Shown here: positions 2 through 16,552 of the stretch, one piece after another
Layout of the letters: every line of letters begins with the position of its first letter
Numbering within the stretch: position 1 is the stretch's first letter
From: Clostridia bacterium
Lineage (GTDB): Bacteria; Bacillota; Clostridia; TANB77; CAG-465
Assembly (NCBI GenBank): GCA_045604405.1
Contig: JAZUNZ010000048.1
Span: forward strand, 25,939-89,938
Length of the DNA stretch: 64,000 bases
Direction of reading: 5' to 3'
Position numbers and translations under genes: made by a program
Notes under the pieces: model-generated
The model's database searches: none
What the model was told of the DNA's origin: nothing
What the model saw: only the letters and a program-made list of their open reading frames with translations

Positions 2-482
2 ACGACTAAACACATTATTGAAAAAGATCCAACAATAAAGAAAGACATTACAAACAGTATGACTGAAAAAGGAAATATAAAATACATTGTATTAAAAACT
101 GACGGACAGATTTACGAACAAGAATACAAGTATTCTTATGATGCATTCGGAATACAAATGTCGTTATTGAAAGAAAAAGTATTGTGTTCAAATGAAGAAT
201 ATGGACATATTACGGATGCGTTATATGATTATTATGGTGAAGAAGCAAAACAAAGACGGAATAGTTAGGATTGTAAGCGATAAAGGACTATTTTATATAA
301 AACAAACAAGTGAACAACAATATATTGATGTAGAGCCAACATATGAATTAGTTAAAAGTGAAATATATGATAAATATAAAACAGATGTAAAATATATAGA
401 TGCAAAATATATTTTTACAACAGACAATAATATTATAGAAACATATATATTATGCAGAGAGATAGATAAAGAGGTAAAATAA
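2..482 (+). pseudogene. Frameshifted paralog of the next gene (5' end lies outside the window)
   Basis: The frame is open from position 2 to 268 (..KYIVLKTDGQIYEQEYK..EYGHITDALYDYYGEEAKQ). The +1 frame (192-482) then continues DGIVRIVSDKGLFYIKQTSEQQYIDVEPTYELV..DKEVK. Joined together, the two pieces align along the C-terminal ~130 aa of the 507-1484 product. The shift lies in the A-rich run gcaaaacaaagac near 255-267. Confidence 0.6.
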
Positions 483-1546: not shown

Positions 1547-1593
1547 TGGTGCGACATCGGGGGCTCGAACCCCGGACCAATAGATTAAGAGTC
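1547..1593 (-). pseudogene. Displaced 3' half of the host tRNA-Lys(CUU), forming the attR junction
   Basis: The minus strand reads gactcttaatc-tattggtccggggttcgagcccccgatgtcgcacca: anticodon loop, T arm, acceptor 3' strand and CCA. No 5' half is adjacent. Its acceptor strand atgtcgc pairs with the orphan 5' half at 8656-8695, not with the intact tRNA at 8552-8627. Confidence 0.85.
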
Positions 1594-1801
1594 AATGGGC
1601 ATTGCAACAATTTTAGGTGAGCAATTTAACATTTTTTCATATCTATTAAACGCACTTTTGTTTCTTGAAAGCCTTTATTTTAAAGGGTTTTAAGAAATTT
1701 TATTATATGTGTTATTATAGCCAAATTTTTATTTTACTATCTTTTATTTTTTGTAAAAGGTGGCACAAAGGTGGCACTTTTTCAAAATTGTGTGTTTTTT
1801 A

Positions 1802-2905
1802 CTAAAAAATTGTTTGTAATTTGTTGGCAACTTCTTTTCGGTTTGCTTGAAATATATGTGAGTAAATAGACATAGTTACATTCATTGATGAGTGTCCTAA
1901 TCTATCTTGTATTTCCTTTGGGTGTATTCCTAATGCTATTTGCATACTTGCAGAAGTATGTCTTAATGCGTGAAAGTTAATTCGTGGCAAATTATATTTG
2001 TTTGCAACCTTTTGTAATATCTTTCCGCAAGTTGTAGGGTACATAGGCTTACCGCTTTTAGCTAAAAACAATTTATTTGTTTCTTTAAAGTTGTTTGTAG
2101 TAGTTTTTAATTCTTCGCGATATTGTTTTAATACCTCTAATGTTTGGGGAGTAAGTACCAAATTTCTATATGATGAGTTGTTTTTTAATTGCTTTTCAAA
2201 GAACTCGCCATTTATAACATCTATTGACTTATTTATTGTTGTAACTCCCGTATCAAAGTTTATATCTTGCCAAGTTAAAGCAAGTATTTCACTTTTTCTT
2301 GCGCCACTATCTATTGCAAGTCTTATCAGCGCTTGATATTTTAAGCACTCGTTATCTAGCCCATTTAAAAGTGTTTTAATTTGTTCTATATCATAACATT
2401 GTACTAGCTTTTTTTCTTTTTTAGGTCTTTTAATTTTTCTATTAGGGTTATAGTCTAGTATTTCAAAATCTATTGCTTGTTCAAACATAAGATTTATTAA
2501 GTTATAATAGTGTAGTAATGTATAATTTGAAATGCTTTTTACTCGGTCGCCTTTCTTTAATTTTATATATAATTCATTTAGAGTATATGTATCAATGTCT
2601 TTAAGTTTCCAATTTCCTATATAGTCATTTATTTTCTCTAACATTGATTTATAGCCTACAATGGTTTTTATACTTAAATTAGGCTCACAATATTTGCTTA
2701 CAAAAATATTTCCATACTCTTTAAAGGTTAGGTCGGTTATATTTATCTTATTACCTTTTTTTGAATATTTTTGTTTCATTTCAAATTCTATCATTTGGGC
2801 TTCTCTTTTTGTGCCATCGTGTACATAGGTTTTTCTGCGCCTATCTGCCTTTGTTCCAACATCTACAATTATTTTATATTTGTTCTTTGATAATGTTTGT
2901 ATCAT
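1802..2905 (-). CDS. int: Tyrosine recombinase / phage-type integrase
   Basis: 367 aa. Catalytic signature elements are present: DSGARKSE (box I Arg), HALRHTSAS (H-x-x-R) and LGHSSMNVTMSIYSH (His..Tyr). There is an N-terminal SAM-like core-binding region. Confidence 0.92.
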   Translation of the reverse strand: MIQTLSKNKYKIIVDVGTKADRRRKTYVHDGTKREAQMIEFEMKQKYSKKGNKINITDLTFKEYGNIFVSKYCEPNLSIKTIVGYKSMLEKINDYIGNWKLKDIDTYTLNELYIKLKKGDRVKSISNYTLLHYYNLINLMFEQAIDFEILDYNPNRKIKRPKKEKKLVQCYDIEQIKTLLNGLDNECLKYQALIRLAIDSGARKSEILALTWQDINFDTGVTTINKSIDVINGEFFEKQLKNNSSYRNLVLTPQTLEVLKQYREELKTTTNNFKETNKLFLAKSGKPMYPTTCGKILQKVANKYNLPRINFHALRHTSASMQIALGIHPKEIQDRLGHSSMNVTMSIYSHIFQANRKEVANKLQTIF

Positions 2906-3004
2906 TTCTTTTGACCTCCTTTTTTCGAAATGATAACCTCACTATCTGCTATATATTATATCAGTTTTTCCTTTATATTTCAAGGGTTTGAAGCAATTTT
3001 TATA

Positions 3005-3199
3005 TTAGCAAAATAGTGTGTGTTTACTTTCTTTTTCTTCTAAATTTTCAATCCATAAGTTAATGTGTTCTAAATCAAATTTAATTCGATTTCCAATTCT
3101 AAAATGTGGTATTCTTTTTTGCCATACTAGTTTTCTAATTTCAGAAACTGAAATTTTTAAATAAGATGATAATTCTTTTAAATTTAATATATTTTTCAT
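3005..3199 (-). CDS. xis: Excisionase-family helix-turn-helix DNA-binding protein
   Basis: 64 aa: MKNILNLKELSSYLKISVSEIRKLVWQKRIPHFRIGNRIKFDLEHINLWIENL. This is an HTH_17/excisionase-like pattern. An SD (agagagg) lies upstream of the ATG at 3199. The gene sits directly upstream of int on the same strand. The longer 3403 start of the track ORF has no support. Confidence 0.8.
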   Translation of the reverse strand: MKNILNLKELSSYLKISVSEIRKLVWQKRIPHFRIGNRIKFDLEHINLWIENLEEKESKHTLFC

Positions 3200-3521
3200 T
3201 TTATACCTCTCTTTTGGGCTACTAGTAAGCCCTTTGACTTGTGCACAAATAAAGAATACCAACTTTTTTATTTTAATTCTTGTACGAAAAAACAAAAAAA
3301 GTGTTCTAATTTCAAAAATAGACTTTCCGCTTCTATCAATGCTTTCAAAGATTTTGATAACCGATTTTTCGAGCAAATGGGCAAAAAAAATGCCTCTTTT
3401 CAAAGCAAAATTTTTCTGTTAATATCATCTTGTAAGAGCAAGACGCGTCCTCTTACAAATATAAAATTGGACTATATCTAATAAGGTTTTTGTGGTATAA
3501 TCTATGCGAGGTGTAAAAGGT

Positions 3522-4640
3522 ATGGGAAATATACACAAGACTTTAAAAGATGACAATTTTAGAAATAGTAAATATATAGAAATTGTTAATAAGCAAATGG
3601 GTTGTGAAAATTTTAGAAAAGACTACGAAAAAGAATATTATATAATGCTTGATATATTTCAAACATTTATCGATTTATATAATTGTTTCTTTGCAGATAG
3701 TAACGGGTCAAATATAGAAAGAGTCAAACAAGCCAAAAGATTATTAGCACAACTTTTCAAAATGAAAGATGAAGAAGAAATAGACTTAATCGGTGTAAAA
3801 TATAGTGTAAGAGATATAAAGAACTTACCAGAAAAAGAAGTTAGGCTTATATATAATCTTATGAAAGAGTGTTGTTATACCTTATATTTTATGGAAGAAA
3901 GCGAAAGAGAGAGTCAAACATTAAAAGAAACGAAAAAACTTATTAAGAAAAAAATGCAAATGTTAGAAAGTGTTGGTTTTGATAAATGGGTTAAAGAAAG
4001 TATTTCTTTTGACAAAAACAAAAATAGCAATTATAAGATTTTCGTTTGCGCTTTTGATACACTAAATAAGAACAATGAAGAATTTATAGAAGATTTTAAA
4101 AAAGGCTTTAATTTTGATTTTGATAAAGACTTTGGGGAAAGTGAGTTTGAAGAATTATTTTATATATATAATCTTGTGGCAAAAGCAAACAATGGTATTG
4201 TTAATGCGCTAGTCAATACACAAGACAAGCAATATAATTTAACTAGTAATTCTTCATCACAAGAGATATACAAAGCATATCTTGATACATTACACTTAAA
4301 TATAAAAGATACATATTCAAATTTAAGCGCATTACATTTTAGTTTGACCGCTTCGACAACTTATGAAAGCATACGCGAAATATATAATATATCTTTCAAT
4401 GAGATGATAAGTAACTTTGACTTATATTTCTTTCTTGATAAAATGAAAAATTGTGTTAATACAAATGAAATAACAATAAATAGCAATGTGACCGATAGTA
4501 TAATAAAGAAATTACAAGATATATATAATACTATTACAAATATACAAGACAAAGATATTAAGGAAACATATAAAGAAGCCTTTGATAAGGTACAAGAAAT
4601 TATTAAAAGAAACGCAAAATATTATATACGCGTTAGTTAG
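3522..4640 (+). CDS. Hypothetical protein, island cargo (predicted mostly helical, no recognised domain)
   Basis: An extended -10 tgGTATAAT at 3493-3501 places the TSS after the ATG at 3504. The ATG at 3522 with SD gaggtg is therefore preferred. No Walker, HEPN, nuclease or HTH motif is visible. Confidence 0.65.
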   Translation: MGNIHKTLKDDNFRNSKYIEIVNKQMGCENFRKDYEKEYYIMLDIFQTFIDLYNCFFADSNGSNIERVKQAKRLLAQLFKMKDEEEIDLIGVKYSVRDIKNLPEKEVRLIYNLMKECCYTLYFMEESERESQTLKETKKLIKKKMQMLESVGFDKWVKESISFDKNKNSNYKIFVCAFDTLNKNNEEFIEDFKKGFNFDFDKDFGESEFEELFYIYNLVAKANNGIVNALVNTQDKQYNLTSNSSSQEIYKAYLDTLHLNIKDTYSNLSALHFSLTASTTYESIREIYNISFNEMISNFDLYFFLDKMKNCVNTNEITINSNVTDSIIKKLQDIYNTITNIQDKDIKETYKEAFDKVQEIIKRNAKYYIRVS

Positions 4641-4652
4641 GAGAGGTTTAAA

Positions 4653-5051
4653 ATGGAAAAATTTAATGCTATAAAAATGTTAGAGAAAGAACAAGAGAAA
4701 GAAAATTTAGTAAATACAAATTCGGGGAAAGAGGAGTTTTATGATAAGTTATTCGCTTATATAGAAGATTATATAGAGCCTTACCTTATAGGCTTAAATA
4801 ATAAAGGACTAATACAATATGACCCTACAAGCGAAGATGAAGATGTTATAGTAAAAACTAATGAATTAGAAATCTTAACAAAAGACTTGTTAGAAAATTT
4901 GGCTTTGGGTTATACAATTAAAAATGGCGAAATGGTTGTTGATGATGATAACCCTAGTAAATACGAAAACTTTATATTTGGCGACAAGAATATAAAAACA
5001 GAGGTAGCCAATATGTTTAAAGCATATATCGAAGAAAGATTTTTAAAATAA
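4653..5051 (+). CDS. Small acidic hypothetical protein, co-operonic with 3522-4640
   Basis: 132 aa. SD ggagagg 6 nt upstream. 12-nt gap to the upstream gene. Followed by the hairpin gtgctaacac/gtgttggcac at about 5062-5088. Confidence 0.65.
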   Translation: MEKFNAIKMLEKEQEKENLVNTNSGKEEFYDKLFAYIEDYIEPYLIGLNNKGLIQYDPTSEDEDVIVKTNELEILTKDLLENLALGYTIKNGEMVVDDDNPSKYENFIFGDKNIKTEVANMFKAYIEERFLK

Positions 5052-5099
5052 TTACGAGCAGGTGCTAACACTTAATTGTGTTGGCACTTCTTATATTAT

Positions 5100-5510
5100 C
5101 TATATAAATATATATAGATATAGAGTATATTTATATAATTATTAAAATTGTATTCTTTAATTAAGTTATATACTAATAAGTATATTAAGTTAAATATATA
5201 TAATTATAAATATATATACTTAATTTATTTTATTTATATATATAACCTTTTGTAAAGATATATAATAAAATAATTTATTACAAGTATAATCTAATGTAAG
5301 TATATTACTTTCTACATTAGGTTATATATATAATTACTTATTCAATAGATGAATATATAATATCTTTCCATAAGACTATATATATTTCAATAGATTATAT
5401 TATTATATTACTTTTCATAAGACTAGATATTTATACTATACTCACTTACATAAGGCTTAATACTTACTACTAAATAATATAATATATTATAATTAGTTAT
5501 ATCTACCTCG
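5100..5510. repeat. Non-coding, extremely AT-rich block with iteron-like direct repeats and an inverted repeat
   Basis: Units ttcaatagat..(t)tt(c)cataagacta recur at 5341 and 5386, a period of ~45-47 bp. A third copy acataaggctt is at 5449. Inverted repeat taatctaatgta (5287-5298) / tacattaggtta (5313-5324). No ORF. Confidence 0.6.
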
Positions 5511-5821
5511 TGTCAAGATATGAAGCAAAAACTTTTTAAAATATTTTTTCCATAGCCTCTTTAAGTAAAATTCCGCTTCAGCATAAAAAATAACCTCGCT
5601 TTATTTCGATTTTAAGGCGCGTTATTTTTTTGACAAGTAATTTGTCGAATAAAAGATTTTCGGCAAAGTATGGTAGCGCATTTTGCTTTATAGAGCTATT
5701 TTACATATATGCAATGAGTGTTTATACAAATCAATGTATGAACATTCTTTTTTATTATATACATTTGCTATTTATATAAAAAACAAGAACGGCTACAAAT
5801 TCGCAACCGTTCTTGAAATGT

Positions 5822-6586
5822 TTAGTCTTTCCGCCACTCTTGATAGCAGTCATTTTCTTTGCACCATTCTTCAAGTGCTGGGGCATGTTCTTTTCTGAAC
5901 TCATCGTAAGTTTTTCCATCGACATCTTCGTAGGTAAACACCTTATATGTCTTTGCCTTAAACCGCTTCATTACTTCTTCAAGTGGGTATTGTCTTTGAC
6001 TATAAGTGTCGAAACACCAGTTATCATTGACATATAAAACATGCATTGTGTAAGCATTGTCGCACTTATCGTCCTCGTTGATATTACCGGTTTTTATTAG
6101 TTTAGTTGCTATAAACATCAATGTTCCTTTTTTTAGACATTTCAGTGTCTCGAAACATACAGCATAGCAATAACCATTAACCTGTTGTGTCATCATAAGA
6201 TAGTGCAGTTTTTCGTTTTCTTTCTTGATAACATCAAAATCATTTTTTGATATTGCATTTCCTTTGATAACATATCGAGAAGAAAAGATATTTGCAGAAA
6301 TTAACTCTTTAAAAGAGTGTATCGGTTCATTAAATTTTTTCATAAACCATACTGCAAAAATAACATACGCTACAATAAGAACAATACATTGAATTATATC
6401 ACTTAAAGTTTGCTCACAAGTAAGCAGTAATGTAAGTAAGCTTGTTAAGGGCAATGCTCCAAAAATTGAAATCAAAAATTGTGAGATAAAATCCGTTTTG
6501 ATTTTATCTTTTAGAAGCATTGCAGTTTCTTGGTCTTCCTTACTTAAAGTTCTAAAAACAGTCCTCCGAAGTACAAATTCAAACAT
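5822..6586 (-). CDS. Two-TM membrane protein with a cytoplasmic Cys..His..Asp domain (possible transglutaminase/papain-like fold)
   Basis: 254 aa. TM helices ISQFLISIFGALPLTSLLTLLL and CIVLIVAYVIFAVWF. C-terminal motifs GYCYAVCFE .. YTMHVLYVNDNWCFDTY resemble the G-x-C / H-x-W-x-E / W-x-x-D-P-T pattern of transglutaminase-like cores. The terminator caagaacgg..ccgttcttg at 5784-5815 follows the gene. Confidence 0.6.
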   Translation of the reverse strand: MFEFVLRRTVFRTLSKEDQETAMLLKDKIKTDFISQFLISIFGALPLTSLLTLLLTCEQTLSDIIQCIVLIVAYVIFAVWFMKKFNEPIHSFKELISANIFSSRYVIKGNAISKNDFDVIKKENEKLHYLMMTQQVNGYCYAVCFETLKCLKKGTLMFIATKLIKTGNINEDDKCDNAYTMHVLYVNDNWCFDTYSQRQYPLEEVMKRFKAKTYKVFTYEDVDGKTYDEFRKEHAPALEEWCKENDCYQEWRKD

Positions 6587-6615
6587 TTTTTCTCAACCTT
6601 TCTGTATTAGATTTT

Positions 6616-6671
6616 TGTGGTTACATAAGTCTATCATACCACATTTGTGTTTACATAAGTTTATTATACCA
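6616..6671 (-). promoter_or_regulatory. Tandemly duplicated 30-bp promoter-like unit upstream of the 5822-6586 gene
   Basis: The minus strand reads tggTATAATaaacttatgtaaacaca and then tggTATGATagacttatgtaaccaca. These are two extended -10 elements (TGnTATAAT type) 30 bp apart. The proximal one is ~47 nt from the ATG. Confidence 0.5.
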
Positions 6672-7044
6672 TCTTTTCCTTTAAATATCAACATTTACGC
6701 TATTTTTTAAAATAGATAGTTAATTTTAGTCGTTGCGATTTTGGGGTAATAGGCCTTTTTTCAATGTCAATTTGCCCGCTTACTAAACCCCACGCGCCCT
6801 ATATGTGTTTTTCAACCTCTTAAAATCGATTTTAAGCCCTGTTTCTTTTTAGAGTAGTAATTTATCATCTAGAACATTTACGAAGCGCATTTCGGTGTTT
6901 ATACGCGTTTTAGAGGTGTTACAACAAACTTGCGTTCGTTGCAAGTTATCGCCTTTTTACTATCTACCTACTATATACATATTATTGATAGCTTTTTGTA
7001 GTTTCCGCTTCTTAATTCCTCTTTATATATGAGGAGGCAAAAAT

Positions 7045-7224
7045 ATGGAAGATAAATTTTACAATTTAAAACAAGTAAGCGAATTACTTATAACTCCAAT
7101 TCCTTACTTGCGAAAACTAATTAAAGAAGAAAAACTAAAAGGTCGCTTTCTTGGTAGGCAATACATAATAAGCGAAAAGGAGTTAAAAGATTTTATAGAT
7201 ACTTTGGGGGTAAAGCAAATATGA
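7045..7224 (+). CDS. Second excisionase-family HTH protein (59 aa, absent from the ORF track)
   Basis: MEDKFYNLKQVSELLITPIPYLRKLIKEEKLKGRFLGRQYIISEKELKDFIDTLGVKQI. SD gaggagg 7 nt upstream. The stop overlaps the next ATG (ATGA at 7221-7224). Confidence 0.7.
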   Translation: MEDKFYNLKQVSELLITPIPYLRKLIKEEKLKGRFLGRQYIISEKELKDFIDTLGVKQI

Positions 7225-7571
7225 AGATAGAACTTGAAAAAGATATTTTAAAATCTCTTGGGCTATATGATACAACAATATCATTTGGACTTGATGAAGA
7301 TATACAAATTGCTATTGAAAGAAAGATAGATAACTACTTAAAGAAAATTGATGAAGAACAAAAACAAAAAGAAAGAATAGACTTTGTAAAACAAGAACAC
7401 GAGAATTTTAAAAAGAAAAATGAATTTGTTAATACCTTTAATGATAAATATGTTTATGGCAAAATAAAAAACAAGTTAATGCGTGACGGGTTTATTTATG
7501 GTTGTCCAACTTGTAGAATATTAGATGTATCACACGAATATATGAAACCGATTAAAAAGAAGCAAAGCTAA
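7221..7571 (+). CDS. Hypothetical protein (island)
   Basis: 116-aa ORF translationally coupled to the upstream HTH gene. Lys/Glu-rich. Single CPTC motif near the C-terminus. Confidence 0.6.
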   Translation: MKIELEKDILKSLGLYDTTISFGLDEDIQIAIERKIDNYLKKIDEEQKQKERIDFVKQEHENFKKKNEFVNTFNDKYVYGKIKNKLMRDGFIYGCPTCRILDVSHEYMKPIKKKQS

Positions 7572-7681
7572 AATTATCTAAAAATTTTTTTAAAAAGTTT
7601 TCACGAACTATTTAAATTTTTTATAATAATTTTATCAATTAAATAATTTAATTGAAATAAAGATTAGGAGGAATTTTAATA

Positions 7682-7990
7682 ATGGAAGAACTTTTAACAA
7701 AGGACACTTTTGAAACAATGGTTTATATTCAACTTTCTAGTGGTGATAATATCGTTATAAATCTAAATACAGCTTTTAGCGCTTTAAGTTATTTTATATC
7801 ACACGATATTACGCAGATAACTGAATTTTGCCAGATAGATGAATTAGTGGGAAAATATAATGAACTACTAAAAAAAAGAGGAAAAGACTCTATTACAGAC
7901 TTGCGTTATAATGATGAAGATGGAATAGCTTTTGCTATTATAACCGGTTTAAAATTAAAACTTGAAAAAGAACTTTTTACATATATGTAA
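7682..7990 (+). CDS. Hypothetical protein (island)
   Basis: 102-aa ORF. SD aggagg 8 nt upstream. Followed by the terminator aaagaggaata..tattcctcttt plus a T-run at 7995-8036. Confidence 0.6.
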   Translation: MEELLTKDTFETMVYIQLSSGDNIVINLNTAFSALSYFISHDITQITEFCQIDELVGKYNELLKKRGKDSITDLRYNDEDGIAFAIITGLKLKLEKELFTYM

Positions 7991-8034
7991 GATGAAAGAG
8001 GAATAGGCATTGTAGCTTATTCCTCTTTATTTTT

Positions 8035-8262
8035 TTACTTATCTAATAGGTCAAGTAATTTCTTTATTTCATTTGCATTGTTTTTTCTAAACTCTATTAT
8101 ATATTCGTTTTTTAATTCCTCTTGGTGTTTTTTCAAAAGGTCGATTTTGTCCGCTTCGACTTTTTCTTCTTCTAGCATTTGTTTAATAACTAACATTTCT
8201 AATATTAAATCTTGTATCTTTGGTGTTAGATTAAATCTTAAATCTTTTAATTCATTTTCCAT
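8035..8262 (-). CDS. Small coiled-coil hypothetical protein (island)
   Basis: The start at 8262 (MENELKDLRF..) has SD aaagga 8 nt upstream. The longer 8292 start has none. Confidence 0.5.
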   Translation of the reverse strand: MENELKDLRFNLTPKIQDLILEMLVIKQMLEEEKVEADKIDLLKKHQEELKNEYIIEFRKNNANEIKKLLDLLDK

Positions 8263-8551
8263 AAATAATTCCTTTCCATAACTAACTATCATAATAATAT
8301 TTAATTGCTTGTTATCATTTCAAATATATTTTTTAGATAGTGAGTGGCAAAGGTGTCACCAAAGTGGCAAAAAGGAAATAACCTTATAATACTTTATGAT
8401 AAGTTATAATACTTTTGTTTTTAAAAAAAATTTCTATATATAATTTTTAGGCGACACTTTTATATAAAAAGTGGCACAAATTTTTGCAAATCAAAGAACA
8501 AAAAAATATCTAGTAAATCGCGTTTTTACTAGATATTTCAACATTTCTAAA

Positions 8552-8627
8552 TGGTGGGTCATCGGGGACTCGAACCCCGGACCAATAGATTAAGAGTCTA
8601 CTGCTCTACCAACTGAGCTAATGACCC
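8552..8627 (-). tRNA. tRNA-Lys (anticodon CUU), island-borne complete copy
   Basis: 76 nt: gggtcattagctcagttggtagagcagtagaCTCTTAAtctattggtccggggttcgagtccccgatgacccacca. Perfect acceptor stem gggtcat/atgaccc. Anticodon loop CUCUUAA. Encoded CCA. Confidence 0.93.
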
Positions 8628-8655
8628 ATTTATTTTGTAATTTTGGTAAGCAACC

Positions 8656-8695
8656 GATTAAGAGTCTACTGCTCTACCAACTGAGCTAATGTCAC
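8656..8695 (-). pseudogene. Orphan 5' half of the host tRNA-Lys(CUU), forming the attL junction
   Basis: The minus strand reads gtgacattagctcagttggtagagcagtagactcttaatc (tRNA positions 1-40) and then breaks into unrelated ggttgcttacc. The acceptor strand gtgacat pairs with atgtcgc of the fragment at 1547-1593. Confidence 0.85.
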
Positions 8696-8709: not shown

Positions 8710-8738
8710 ATTATAACAAATATATCTTAATTTGTAAA
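8710..8738 (-). promoter_or_regulatory. Sigma-A-type promoter of the (now split) host tRNA-Lys gene
   Basis: The minus strand reads TTTACA-17 nt-TATAAT, ending 14 nt upstream of the 5'-half fragment. No promoter fits in the 28-nt gap before the island tRNA. Confidence 0.6.
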
Positions 8739-10375: not shown

Positions 10376-11749
10376 ATGAAAACTTTTTTAGAATGGTTGA
10401 AACCAGGGGTAAGAGTAAAAAGATATATTATATTACAGCTTATATCAATAGGAACACTTATATATTCAATAATTTCTCTTACAATGAGAGATATACTTAC
10501 ACCTAATATACTTATTGCATATATAGCACTAATTACATTATCGTTATTTTTAACAGTATATTCGTTCTTTTTAGCACAAAGAAACATATTAAAAGTAACG
10601 TTAAAGAATATGGCATACAAGGATAAAAATATAGACATACGTAGATTGTTATATACAGAATCAATGCTTAAAAAAGGACCAAAAGTAGTAATAATTGGTG
10701 GTGGAAAGGGACTTTCTAACATATTAAGTGGACTTAAAGAATTTACCTCTAATATAACATCAATAGTTGCGGCTTTTGATGATGGTGGCTCAACAGGAAA
10801 ACTTATGGAGGAAATGGATATATTACCACCAGGAGATATACGTAGAAGCTTAATAGCACTTTCTTCATCAGAACCATGTATGGAAAAGCTATTAGGATAT
10901 AGATTTAAAAACGGAGCAGTGGACAATCATTCTTTAGGAAATTTAATGATAGTAGCGATGACAGAAATAATGGGTGGATTTGCACCAGCTATTGAAAAAC
11001 TATCTAGTATATTTAATGTAAAAGGGAAAATACTTCCAGTATCACTAGATAAAGCTAAACTGTGCGCAGGCCTTGAAAATGGTGAAATAGTTGTTGGAGA
11101 AGACAACATACGTCCAAGAGTATTAGAATCAAAAAGTAGAATAAAGCAAATATTCTTAAAGGATGTAGAAGCAAATCCAGCACCAGGTGTAATAGAAGCA
11201 ATAAATGAGGCAGATATCATAGTACTAGGACCAGGTAGTTTATATACAAGTGTAATTTGCAACTTACTAGTAAATGAAGTAGGTAAAGCTATAATACAAA
11301 GTAAAGCTAAGAAAGTAATGATATCTAACCTTATGAATGAACCAGGAGAAACATCAGGATATACATTAGCAAGACATGTAAATGAAATAGAGAGATATCT
11401 AGGCAAACATGTTTTAGATTATCTTATTGCAAACAATGGTGAAATAACTGAGGATATGATATATGATTTCAACCAAGGGGCATCAACTCCTGTAACGTTA
11501 GATTTACCAAATATACAAAATAGAACAATATCTGTTATAGAAGAAGATCTAGTTATAACTGCACCAAATGCTATACTTCATGATAACCTAAGAGTTGCTG
11601 AAATTATTATAGAAATAGCTAAAACTAAAAGAATGGGCTCTTTAAATTTGCTTAAAAGTAAAAATACAAAGAAAACAAAAAAGAGTGTAGCTGGCAAGGA
11701 AGTAAAAATTAAAAAAGACAACAATGCTTCAGAAAAACAAAGCAAGTAG
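10376..11749 (+). CDS. yvcK: YvcK/CofD-family gluconeogenesis and morphology factor with N-terminal TM extension and Lys-rich tail
   Basis: Core VVIIGGGKGLSNILSGLK .. DDGGSTGKL .. IVLGPGSLYTSV is typical of UPF0052/YvcK. About 90 aa of N-terminal hydrophobic segments and about 40 aa of C-terminal K-rich tail are extra. Confidence 0.85.
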   Translation: MKTFLEWLKPGVRVKRYIILQLISIGTLIYSIISLTMRDILTPNILIAYIALITLSLFLTVYSFFLAQRNILKVTLKNMAYKDKNIDIRRLLYTESMLKKGPKVVIIGGGKGLSNILSGLKEFTSNITSIVAAFDDGGSTGKLMEEMDILPPGDIRRSLIALSSSEPCMEKLLGYRFKNGAVDNHSLGNLMIVAMTEIMGGFAPAIEKLSSIFNVKGKILPVSLDKAKLCAGLENGEIVVGEDNIRPRVLESKSRIKQIFLKDVEANPAPGVIEAINEADIIVLGPGSLYTSVICNLLVNEVGKAIIQSKAKKVMISNLMNEPGETSGYTLARHVNEIERYLGKHVLDYLIANNGEITEDMIYDFNQGASTPVTLDLPNIQNRTISVIEEDLVITAPNAILHDNLRVAEIIIEIAKTKRMGSLNLLKSKNTKKTKKSVAGKEVKIKKDNNASEKQSK

Positions 11750-15298: not shown

Positions 15299-16552
15299 AT
15301 GAATTTAACTCAAGGAAATATGTTTTGGAATGAGAATATAGGAATTATTAAAAAGTATCCGTATCTAAGTAGAGATAAAAAATGCGATGTGCTAGTAATT
15401 GGCGGAGGGATTGCAGGTGCCTTGACAGCTTTTATGCAAGCAAAGCAGGGAGTAAATGTTATAGTTGTGGATAAAAATATACTTGGGTTTGGAGCGACAC
15501 TGCAAACAGACGGAACGCTAGAAACAAGGGTGAATTTTAATCCTAAGCTTTCAAAAAATATGGATGAAAAAAGTATAGCCAAGTGTAACAGCTTATGTAT
15601 GCAAGCTTTGCAGGATATACAACAAATAATAAACGAGCTATGGGAAGATGAAGATTGTAAAAAATATATAGATAGTATTGGGTTTAAAAATGTAGACTTA
15701 ATGTATTTTTCCTATCATATAACAAATAAAATTGGCGTGTATAAAACTTTTGAAAAACTAGGAAAAGAAAATAATAATATAGAGTATTTAGAAGAAGATC
15801 CTTTAATTAATTTAAGAACAGGAATAATATTTCCAAATGCTGCTGGTATAATGAATCCATATTTACTTACGCAGCTTATATTTATATACTTAAGTAAAAA
15901 GGAAAATGTAGAAATTTATGAACATACAGATATAACAAGTATTTCTGTAAAAGATGAAATAGTAGAGTGTATTACAAATAATAGATTTAAAATTTTTTCA
16001 AAAAGCACAATACTTACAAATGGAATACATACTTTAGAATATTTGAGTGAGGATAATATAACACTAAATAAAACGTTTACAGTTATTACAGAAAGAGTGA
16101 CAAGTTTAGACGAAAACGTTATAAACGTTGTTGCAAAGGATATAAATTTCCCAAATACAACAATAGCATTTACAAAAGATAAAAGAATTATTGTGTGCGG
16201 CGAAGATGTAAAACAAAACGAGCGTATGATAAATGACAAGTATTTTATAAGTTATGCAAATGGTAAGTATAAAAAAATGTATTTAACACTTAGGAAATTA
16301 GTAAATATTCCAAGTAATGTGAAAATAACAAATTGTTTTTATGGAATGTATTTAGACACAAAAGATTCGCTTCCAATTATAGATGAATTAGAAAACATGC
16401 CAAATGTATATTGTAACTTGGGCACGGGAAAAAATGGAATTATTTTTGCAATGATGGGAGCCAGAATGCTTAAAGATGTATCTAAGCAATATCACACAAA
16501 GGATATGTATATGTTTAGAGAAAATAGGCAAAGAATAAGGAACAAGCAATAG
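15299..16552 (+). CDS. FAD-dependent oxidoreductase (DAO family)
   Basis: Rossmann dinucleotide motif DVLVIGGGIAGALTAF near the N-terminus. 417 aa. Confidence 0.75.
   Translation: MNLTQGNMFWNENIGIIKKYPYLSRDKKCDVLVIGGGIAGALTAFMQAKQGVNVIVVDKNILGFGATLQTDGTLETRVNFNPKLSKNMDEKSIAKCNSLCMQALQDIQQIINELWEDEDCKKYIDSIGFKNVDLMYFSYHITNKIGVYKTFEKLGKENNNIEYLEEDPLINLRTGIIFPNAAGIMNPYLLTQLIFIYLSKKENVEIYEHTDITSISVKDEIVECITNNRFKIFSKSTILTNGIHTLEYLSEDNITLNKTFTVITERVTSLDENVINVVAKDINFPNTTIAFTKDKRIIVCGEDVKQNERMINDKYFISYANGKYKKMYLTLRKLVNIPSNVKITNCFYGMYLDTKDSLPIIDELENMPNVYCNLGTGKNGIIFAMMGARMLKDVSKQYHTKDMYMFRENRQRIRNKQ

Follow-up and report, generated by a model that had tools for sequence, protein, structure and literature searches.

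A 64,000-nt stretch of contig JAZUNZ010000048.1 from a Clostridia bacterium (hereafter the window) holds the two pieces of a host lysine transfer RNA (tRNA) gene, tRNA-Lys(CUU), one at either end of a 7.06-kb island that encodes a tyrosine integrase and an Xis-like protein. The sequence comparisons described below indicate that this island very probably split the host gene and substitutes its own complete tRNA-Lys(CUU), together with a terminator. Coordinates are those of the whole 64,000-nt stretch, and the pieces, the island and the intact tRNA are read on the minus strand; contigs and genomes used for comparison carry labels beginning with L. The features that define the split are the following.

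8710–8738, minus strand: predicted host tRNA-Lys promoter, TTTACA-17-TGnTATAAT, with 11/12 consensus matches and an extended −10, 14 nt upstream of the 5′ fragment.
8656–8695, minus strand: host tRNA-Lys(CUU) 5′ fragment, tRNA positions 1–40, acceptor strand gtgacat, identical to the 5′ 40 nt of the intact genes of L001–L003.
8666 to 8656, minus strand: attL copy of the core, gactcttaatc, the last 11 nt of the 5′ fragment.
8628–8655, minus strand: 28-nt island spacer, ggttgcttaccaaaattacaaaataaat, on the P′ side of the core, identical in L031–L039 (a different host).
8552–8627 (read 8627 to 8552), minus strand: complete island-borne tRNA-Lys(CUU), acceptor gggtcat/atgaccc, detected by ARAGORN and by Rfam (tRNA, 74.6 bits), with an identical copy in the L031 island.
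8504–8538 (read 8538 to 8504), minus strand: terminator hairpin of the island, aaatatctagtaaa...tttactagatattt, followed by a T run, −14.1 kcal/mol, with homologs in L015, L016, L022, L031 and L058.
1594–8655, minus strand: the island proper, 7,062 bp between the junction cores, 92–95% homologous to the L031 island up to the ends of the tRNA fragments and no further.
1547–1593, minus strand: displaced host 3′ fragment, tRNA positions 41–76 including CCA, acceptor strand atgtcgc, able to pair with that of the 5′ fragment but not with that of the island tRNA.
1593 to 1583, minus strand: attR copy of the core, inside the host 3′ fragment.
1501–1535 (read 1535 to 1501), minus strand: host tRNA-Lys terminator, homologous to the island terminator.

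The host 5′ piece (8695 to 8656, 40 nt) reads gtgacattagctcagttggtagagcagtaGACTCTTAATC and the host 3′ piece (1593 to 1547, 47 nt), which is present at the distal end of the island as a direct repeat, reads GACTCTTAATCtattggtccggggttcgagcccccgatgtcgcacca. Common to both is an 11-bp core, GACTCTTAATC, made up of the 7-nt anticodon loop and 2 bp of stem on each side. When the pieces were rejoined through this core, ARAGORN called a tRNA-Lys(ctt) of 76 nt whose acceptor stem is paired throughout, including G1-C72, U2-G71, G3-C70 and A4-U69. Neither piece alone was called as a tRNA by ARAGORN, and neither fragment had an Rfam score. The sole intact tRNA of the region, by both ARAGORN and Rfam, was the island tRNA-Lys(ctt) at 8627 to 8552. 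It differs from the rejoined host gene at positions 2, 4, 60, 69 and 71, and cross-combining the halves of the two genes gave 2 acceptor mismatches either way. Canonical regeneration, in which the island supplies the 3′ part of its target, was accordingly not found at this locus, the hybrid of host 5′ and island 3′ sequence being one of these mismatched combinations. The spacer that follows the core (ggttgcttacc...) is non-tRNA sequence, and because attP has no tRNA 3′ half beyond the core, the host gene was left as a 5′ and a 3′ piece and not rebuilt. The ggttgc immediately 3′ of the core was kept in all tRNA-Lys-targeting lineages.

The host terminator (1535 to 1501) and the island terminator (8538 to 8504) have identical 14-nt stem arms, and the terminators of other hosts, L031 and the metagenome-assembled genomes (MAGs) L001–L003, are unrelated to the terminator of the island family. 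The initial annotation of this locus had held that the halves and their shared core give a 76-nt tRNA-Lys, that the acceptor strands gtgacat and atgtcgc pair with each other through A4-U69 and U2-G71, that neither fragment pairs with the intact tRNA at 8552–8627, and that this tRNA brings a homologous terminator along. Its coordinates and sequences were right, and the rejoined fold, the cross-combinations and the stem arms bear out each of these statements. It had further suggested that the tRNA locus was captured from an earlier host. This is plausible on sequence grounds because the terminator of the window host is homologous to the family-wide island terminator while those of L031 and the MAGs are unrelated to it; either the tRNA cassette came from a relative of the window host, or the host terminator is itself the relic of an earlier island.

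The same island was found in a second host. Homologs of a 75-aa protein encoded at the island's left end led to a 111-kb contig of the Joint Genome Institute (JGI), L031, and near-identical islands are carried by L031 and 8 further left-junction contigs (L031–L039, from other JGI and ENA assemblies). The L031 island shares 99.7% integrase identity and 92–95% DNA identity with that of the window, and its genomic context differs, with AddA upstream and an AAA_28 gene downstream. Both the 28-nt spacer and the gggtcat tRNA of L031 are identical to those of the window. The split host allele is different, gcgccat/atggcgc: the 5′ fragment reads gcgccat...GACTCTTAATC, and the far end reads gcccatt-GACTCTTAATC, followed by a 3′ half ending in atggcgcacca. 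These host pieces pair perfectly with each other, and ARAGORN called the rejoined gene as tRNA-Lys. Because spacer and tRNA are identical in L031 while homology ceases where the tRNA fragments end, the spacer and the tRNA in its entirety are carried along when the island moves. The earlier claim that the intact tRNA is island DNA starting 28 nt from the junction is therefore upheld by the same spacer and tRNA travelling with a 99.7% identical integrase in a second host. In L031 the displaced host 3′ fragment (16371–16405) has a T-stem mismatch, U50·C64, that is absent from intact relatives and may reflect decay of the orphaned fragment.

Empty sites were present in related genomes. The 40-nt 5′ fragment was scanned against one genome per species, and it matched 3 Clostridia MAGs (L001–L003), all of which hold the exact rejoined 76-mer (76/76) as an intact gene. 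Their tRNA locus is syntenic with the upstream flank of the window, YvcK-MurB-p151-tRNA in the same order, with homologs of the window YvcK (87% identity), MurB (71–76%) and 151-aa proteins. These orthologous sites are uninterrupted and contain a single intact tRNA, with no 5′ half and no second tRNA. The identity of the rejoined gene to intact genes in synteny is far beyond chance. The initial annotation had proposed looking for an empty site in relatives, and had itself named two arrangements that would speak against it: a truncated 5′ half beside a gggtcat-type tRNA-Lys in island-free relatives, or a rejoined sequence that never occurs intact. Neither arrangement was seen; the syntenic island-free loci of these related species hold one intact gene, identical to the rejoined sequence. 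When metagenomes were scanned for intact genes of the GYGMCAT type, the hits were confined to loci of related species (L054, L055) and to unrelated tRNA clusters of marine origin, and exact-protein look-ups with the flanking 151-aa protein and P0121 gave no record.

Next to the island lies a 325-aa gene with an upstream partial copy of its 3′ part that is about 80% identical (window 59–482, 507–1484). The repeat spacing is 1,002 nt, and the copy is a tandem paralog or a pseudogene. No homolog of this duplicated gene was found at the syntenic L001–L003 loci.

The integrase belongs to a large family, and homologs of the left-end backbone protein (>200) occur on contigs from Hadza, Human Microbiome Project (HMP) and other gut metagenomes. 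The lineages that inform the integration style are listed here with their integrase identity and target.

L015, integrase 91%, tRNA-Lys(CUU): left-end tRNA with C28-G42, displaced 3′ half with A41/A42; the contig starts inside the tRNA.
L016, integrase 90% (gene truncated), tRNA-Lys(CUU): canonical, with a single intact tRNA (5755–5830) and a 47-bp direct repeat (11051–11097).
L027, integrase 72%, tRNA-Lys(CUU): the host 5′ fragment (gtctcgt) and the core are followed by a 30-nt spacer that begins with ggttgc and by the island's own complete tRNA-Lys, ggggcgt/acgcccc; the matching host 3′ fragment (acgggac) follows int.
68% lineage, integrase 68%, tRNA-Lys(CUU): one spacer and one tRNA in 3 fully resolved host alleles, ggactgt/acagtcc, gtctcct/aggggac (an NCBI genome) and gggctgt/acagccc; 2 additional host 3′ alleles were seen at attR only.
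L041–L048, integrase 46%, tRNA-Arg(CCU): same backbone; the 5′ fragment is followed by a 65-nt spacer and by the island's complete tRNA-Arg(CCU), and the matching 3′ fragment follows int.

The full-tRNA design was thus present in at least 5 host alleles beyond those of the window and L031, in the 72%, 68% and 46% lineages, and L015 is probably a further full-tRNA island, judging from its tRNA halves. In every resolved host allele (7/7) the host 5′ fragment pairs with the host 3′ fragment and the island 5′ half with the island 3′ half, and combining host 5′ with island 3′ sequence produced 1–4 mismatches in each. Across the family, 28–65 nt separate the tRNA from the crossover, and the tRNA has the core on one side and candidate arm-type repeats on the other. 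The L041–L048 lineage splits tRNA-Arg(CCU) at the anticodon loop (e.g. L041 1776–1957 and ~11160), so that a cognate switch from tRNA-Lys(CUU) to tRNA-Arg(CCU) is seen together with the change of target. L031, these further alleles and the intact syntenic genes of the relatives all agree with the initial proposal that the host gene is split and not rebuilt, with a full island allele as its substitute.

Several further observations concern these lineages. In the tRNA-Arg lineage the island tRNA deviates from the core at flanking positions, and the L041–L048 islands also carry a DnaB_C/AAA_25 ATPase gene. The host allele of L016, gggctgt/acagccc, is the one that the 68% lineage splits in L061, and because L016 is canonical at that allele, both integration styles coexist in one clade. 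At ~1390–1440 of L049, an island that shares the left-end backbone (its 75-aa protein is 87% identical) adjoins an opposite-strand tRNA 3′ fragment and has no tRNA-Lys, which suggests that this backbone can also be paired with another type of integration module.

Within the island of the window, the remaining features are as follows.

1760–1777, minus strand: two tandem candidate P-arm repeats, gtgccacctttgtgccac, between the int stop and the core.
1802–2905 (read 2905 to 1802), minus strand: tyrosine integrase, 367 aa, transcribed toward attR; Pfam PF00589 (8.4e-28), SAM-like N domains, PHROG 1.
3005–3205 (read 3205 to 3005), minus strand: HTH_17 excisionase-like (Xis-like) gene directly upstream of int; PF12728 (1.4e-11), PHROG 66 (excisionase/regulator).
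3504–7990, both strands: cargo and regulatory genes, comprising 378-aa and 132-aa open reading frames (ORFs) on the plus strand, a 254-aa ORF on the minus strand, an HTH_17 gene at 7045–7224, and 116-aa and 102-aa ORFs.
8035–8262, minus strand: conserved 75-aa left-end backbone ORF, with >200 homologs, always adjoining the island tRNA in the loci examined.
8344–8477, minus strand: candidate P′ arm-type integrase-binding repeats, motif GTGCCAC/TGCCAC, at 8471–8477, 8364–8369 and 8344–8349, with variants at 8451–8457 and 8353–8359.

The HxxR, GH and Y motifs are visible in the integrase (...HALRHTSAS...LGHSS...SIYSH), so an element-encoded enzyme of the tyrosine family is predicted to catalyse integration. 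The int gene adjoins the displaced 3′ fragment and is oriented toward it. The GTGCCAC-type repeats flanking the core are candidate arm-type integrase sites, and similar GGCAC-type motifs were found on both arms in L015, L021, L027 and L041; if these repeats are arm-type sites, the island tRNA lies inside attP. Searches against Pfam and PHROGs gave no matches to capsid, tail, terminase, lysis or repressor genes, the only matches being int, the Xis-like gene and the helix-turn-helix (HTH) genes. With the exception of HTH_17, the cargo and regulatory ORFs received no Pfam, PHROG or PADLOC assignment. The integrase had relatives at only 30–34% identity in viral contigs and at most 32% in deposited phages (tblastn), and the island had no match in plasmids (megablast). 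The element is an island, or possibly a satellite, and not a temperate phage, although it works like a phage system.

The cargo region showed some variation of its own. The segment at ~5710–6720, which includes the 254-aa ORF, is the part that differs from the L031 island, and it is bracketed by a 64-nt direct repeat of 72% identity (5599–5662 and 6819–6882). This segment may be a cargo-exchange hotspot. Beside it, the G+C content of 5001–5500 is only 16.6%.

The organization of the locus suggests how the island could work. Site-specific recombination would insert the 7.06-kb island into the host tRNA-Lys(CUU) gene, and the crossover would most likely fall within the 7-nt anticodon loop, because the core consists of that loop and 2 bp of stem on each side. 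By our own reading of the sequence, the four half-sites flanking the core, GCAGTAGA, CCAATAGA, CCCATTGA and GCAACCGA, resemble one another, as expected of core-type sites. After integration the host tRNA promoter would drive the island tRNA. Upstream of the island tRNA, nothing but the site at 8738 to 8710 looked like a promoter. L031 and L041 have equivalent promoters upstream of their 5′ fragments, and a consensus scan found no promoter-like site in the spacers of the window, L031 or L041. With no promoter predicted in the spacer, transcription of the island tRNA probably starts at the host tRNA promoter. In the predicted fold of the precursor, the acceptor, anticodon and T arms of the island tRNA form as in the stand-alone fold, with the orphan 5′ fragment paired with the spacer; a 68-nt leader would then be removed by RNase P, and the island tRNA would functionally replace that of the host. 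Carrying a whole tRNA would free the island from matching the acceptor stem of each host. With none of the host alleles seen would a donated 3′ half pair without mismatch.

The host gene would be restored if Int and Xis excised the island through the two outer cores. The initial annotation had regarded precise excision as the only way to achieve this. A third identical 11-bp core lies within the island tRNA (8588–8598), with tRNA-type flanks, and is a potential attB-like site; because of it, precise excision is not the sole possible recombination product. If 8588–8598 recombined with attR, the excised product would be a circle of the canonical type, with the core and the 3′ half, and what stayed behind would be a scar made up of the 5′ fragment, the spacer and a hybrid tRNA.

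Other accounts of the 5′ fragment and the spacer were considered and discarded. A 68-nt tandem duplication as the source of both was rejected as the spacer is unrelated to the sequence after the 5′ half of the island tRNA. The spacer shows only a weak ‘..tacca’ resemblance to a collapsed tRNA 3′ end, which was not found in L027 or L058. The hairpin between 5′ fragment and spacer has no U tract and was not accepted as a terminator.

We would also propose, with slightly less than even confidence, that ‘split and replace’ is a portable module: a promoterless cognate tRNA would sit inside attP, between the core and the P′ arm sites; integration would destroy the host gene and place the island tRNA under the host promoter, which would make its expression dependent on integration; only the anticodon loop would have to match, allowing one island to enter hosts with differing acceptor stems, of which 7 alleles were resolved; and the module would have been retargeted at least once, from Lys-CUU to Arg-CCU, through a joint switch of integrase specificity and the tRNA cassette.

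Some results weigh against the interpretation that the island splits and replaces its target. Empty sites came only from related species, as the window's own species yielded no island-free genome. The circular attP junction was detected neither in viral contigs (junction 17-mer) nor in JGI metagenome contigs (GCCCATTGACTCTTAATCGGTTGC), and because it is absent from the scanned contigs, excision has no direct support. The promoter predictions come from simple consensus matching. The canonical L016 means that the full-tRNA design is not universal in the clade. Finally, the codons of C34 isoacceptors can often be read by U34 isoacceptors through wobble decoding, so the replacement may be non-essential.

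This last point underlies the alternative that accepts this structure but takes the island tRNA to be dispensable or redundant, a neutral or mildly beneficial passenger that creates neither dependence nor addiction. Both targets of the family are C34 isoacceptors (Lys-CUU and Arg-CCU), and the host dependence that the initial annotation suggested may be weaker here than in mycobacteria because the C34 tRNA-Lys(CUU) may be dispensable if tRNA-Lys(UUU) reads AAG. We nevertheless consider a dispensable tRNA unlikely, though it deserves serious attention: a complete cognate tRNA is kept beside the core down to 46% integrase identity, tRNA identity switches together with the target, which argues for selection to keep the tRNA, and the equivalent tRNA is required in mycobacteriophages (PMC10865867).

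The alternatives that concern the structure itself fared worse. In a two-step history, an earlier full-tRNA island would have excised through the core of its own tRNA, leaving a scar with a hybrid tRNA that a canonical 3′-half island then entered, and the present mobile unit would exclude the 5′ half of the tRNA. Recombination at the identical core of the island tRNA (8588–8598) is conceivable and canonical relatives such as L016 exist, yet the same sequence of events would be needed independently in each host, the spacers are identical within a lineage (2 hosts for the window lineage, 3 for the 68% lineage), no scar-only locus was present among the loci examined, and a full-tRNA island is still presupposed; this history is very improbable. 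On present data an ancestral tandem, in which the host already had a truncated 5′ half beside a gggtcat tRNA-Lys and a canonical 3′-half island entered the intact gene, is effectively refuted. In its favour, the close relative L016 is canonical, with a 47-bp direct repeat, and the island-side terminator stands directly 3′ of the tRNA, as in canonical relatives; against it, the displaced atgtcgc pairs with gtgacat and not with gggtcat, the identical spacer and tRNA stand behind a different 5′ fragment in another host, the syntenic loci of L001–L003 have a single intact gene identical to the rejoined sequence, and the pairing logic holds in 7 resolved host alleles. Repeated tRNA halves can also break or mis-join short-read assemblies, and the L015 contig does start inside the tRNA. 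The probability that the locus is a chimeric join of tRNA repeats is nonetheless close to nil, given that the same attL junction recurs in at least 9 independent JGI/ENA assemblies for the window lineage and in 9 more for the 68% lineage. Splitting of the host gene and its replacement by an island-borne tRNA is thus the reading that we retain.

The strategy itself is already known as tRNA-dependent lysogeny and is not a new principle; it is documented here by several independent insertions. It has been shown experimentally, largely in actinobacteriophages, for Fionnbharth K4, Cluster L, Cain K6, Gaia X and Gordonia CQ2/DL (Guerrero-Bustamante & Hatfull, mBio 2024, PMC10865867). In these systems a tyrosine integrase uses an 8–17 bp core in a host tRNA, the tRNA is not rebuilt and the cognate phage tRNA is needed for survival of the lysogen, and close phage relatives with 43–49 bp cores do rebuild the tRNA (PMC10865867). 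The initial annotation had presented the design as a departure from the usual 3′-half rebuilding; the host gene is indeed not rebuilt, but the design is less unusual than was supposed, the strategy having been published in 2024 (PMC10865867). The island shares with the phages a tyrosine integrase, an attB in a host tRNA, a short (11-bp) core, the lack of a functional tRNA at attL and attR, an element-borne cognate tRNA and the recurrence of the trait with different target tRNAs, and the canonical L016 parallels the tRNA-rebuilding phages with their 43–49 bp cores (PMC10865867). It departs from them in not being a temperate phage, as judged from Pfam and PHROGs, its 7 kb and the lack of a near relative in deposited phages or plasmids: the family consists of 7–10 kb islands without detectable phage structural, lysis or repressor genes, in low-GC Clostridia/Bacilli-like gut bacteria. 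The island targets are C34 isoacceptors, and the requirement for the tRNA is known only for the phages. The Fionnbharth tRNA overlaps protein-coding gene 37, at another place in the genome, and its promoter has been demonstrated (PMC10865867), unlike the island tRNA, which stands 28–65 nt away from the crossover, in the interval from the core to the candidate arm repeats, and has no predicted promoter.

Canonical islands (Williams 2002; Islander, PMC4383910) resemble this one in their tyrosine integrase, anticodon-loop sublocation, displaced 3′ fragment at the far end and Xis-like gene beside int. Here, in contrast, no 3′ tRNA half follows the core in attP, a 5′ fragment remains as well, the intact tRNA at the end of the island consists entirely of island DNA, and int lies at the end with the displaced 3′ fragment instead of beside the intact tRNA. 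In a Firmicute, the Lactobacillus johnsonii prophage Lj965 is reported, as cited in PMC10865867, to carry a cognate tRNA for a target that is not rebuilt, and phage-related sequences of Sinorhizobium meliloti are reported to replace an inactivated tRNA (PMC11476347). As far as these accounts go, both are prophages or phage-related, and no family-wide evidence from multiple hosts is given for them.

Collectively, these data extend tRNA-dependent integration to widespread small non-phage islands of human-gut Clostridia/Bacilli-like bacteria. Island finders that expect a regenerated tRNA and one 3′ fragment will misplace the left boundary of such islands and assign the island tRNA to the host. 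For gut Firmicutes that are hard to manipulate, the compact int-attP-tRNA unit could be used as a broad-host integration vector, as has been proposed for mycobacteria. The presence of one lineage in several hosts is a direct argument for carrying a whole tRNA, as a hybrid acceptor stem would be incompatible, and horizontally moving alleles are replacing host tRNA alleles.

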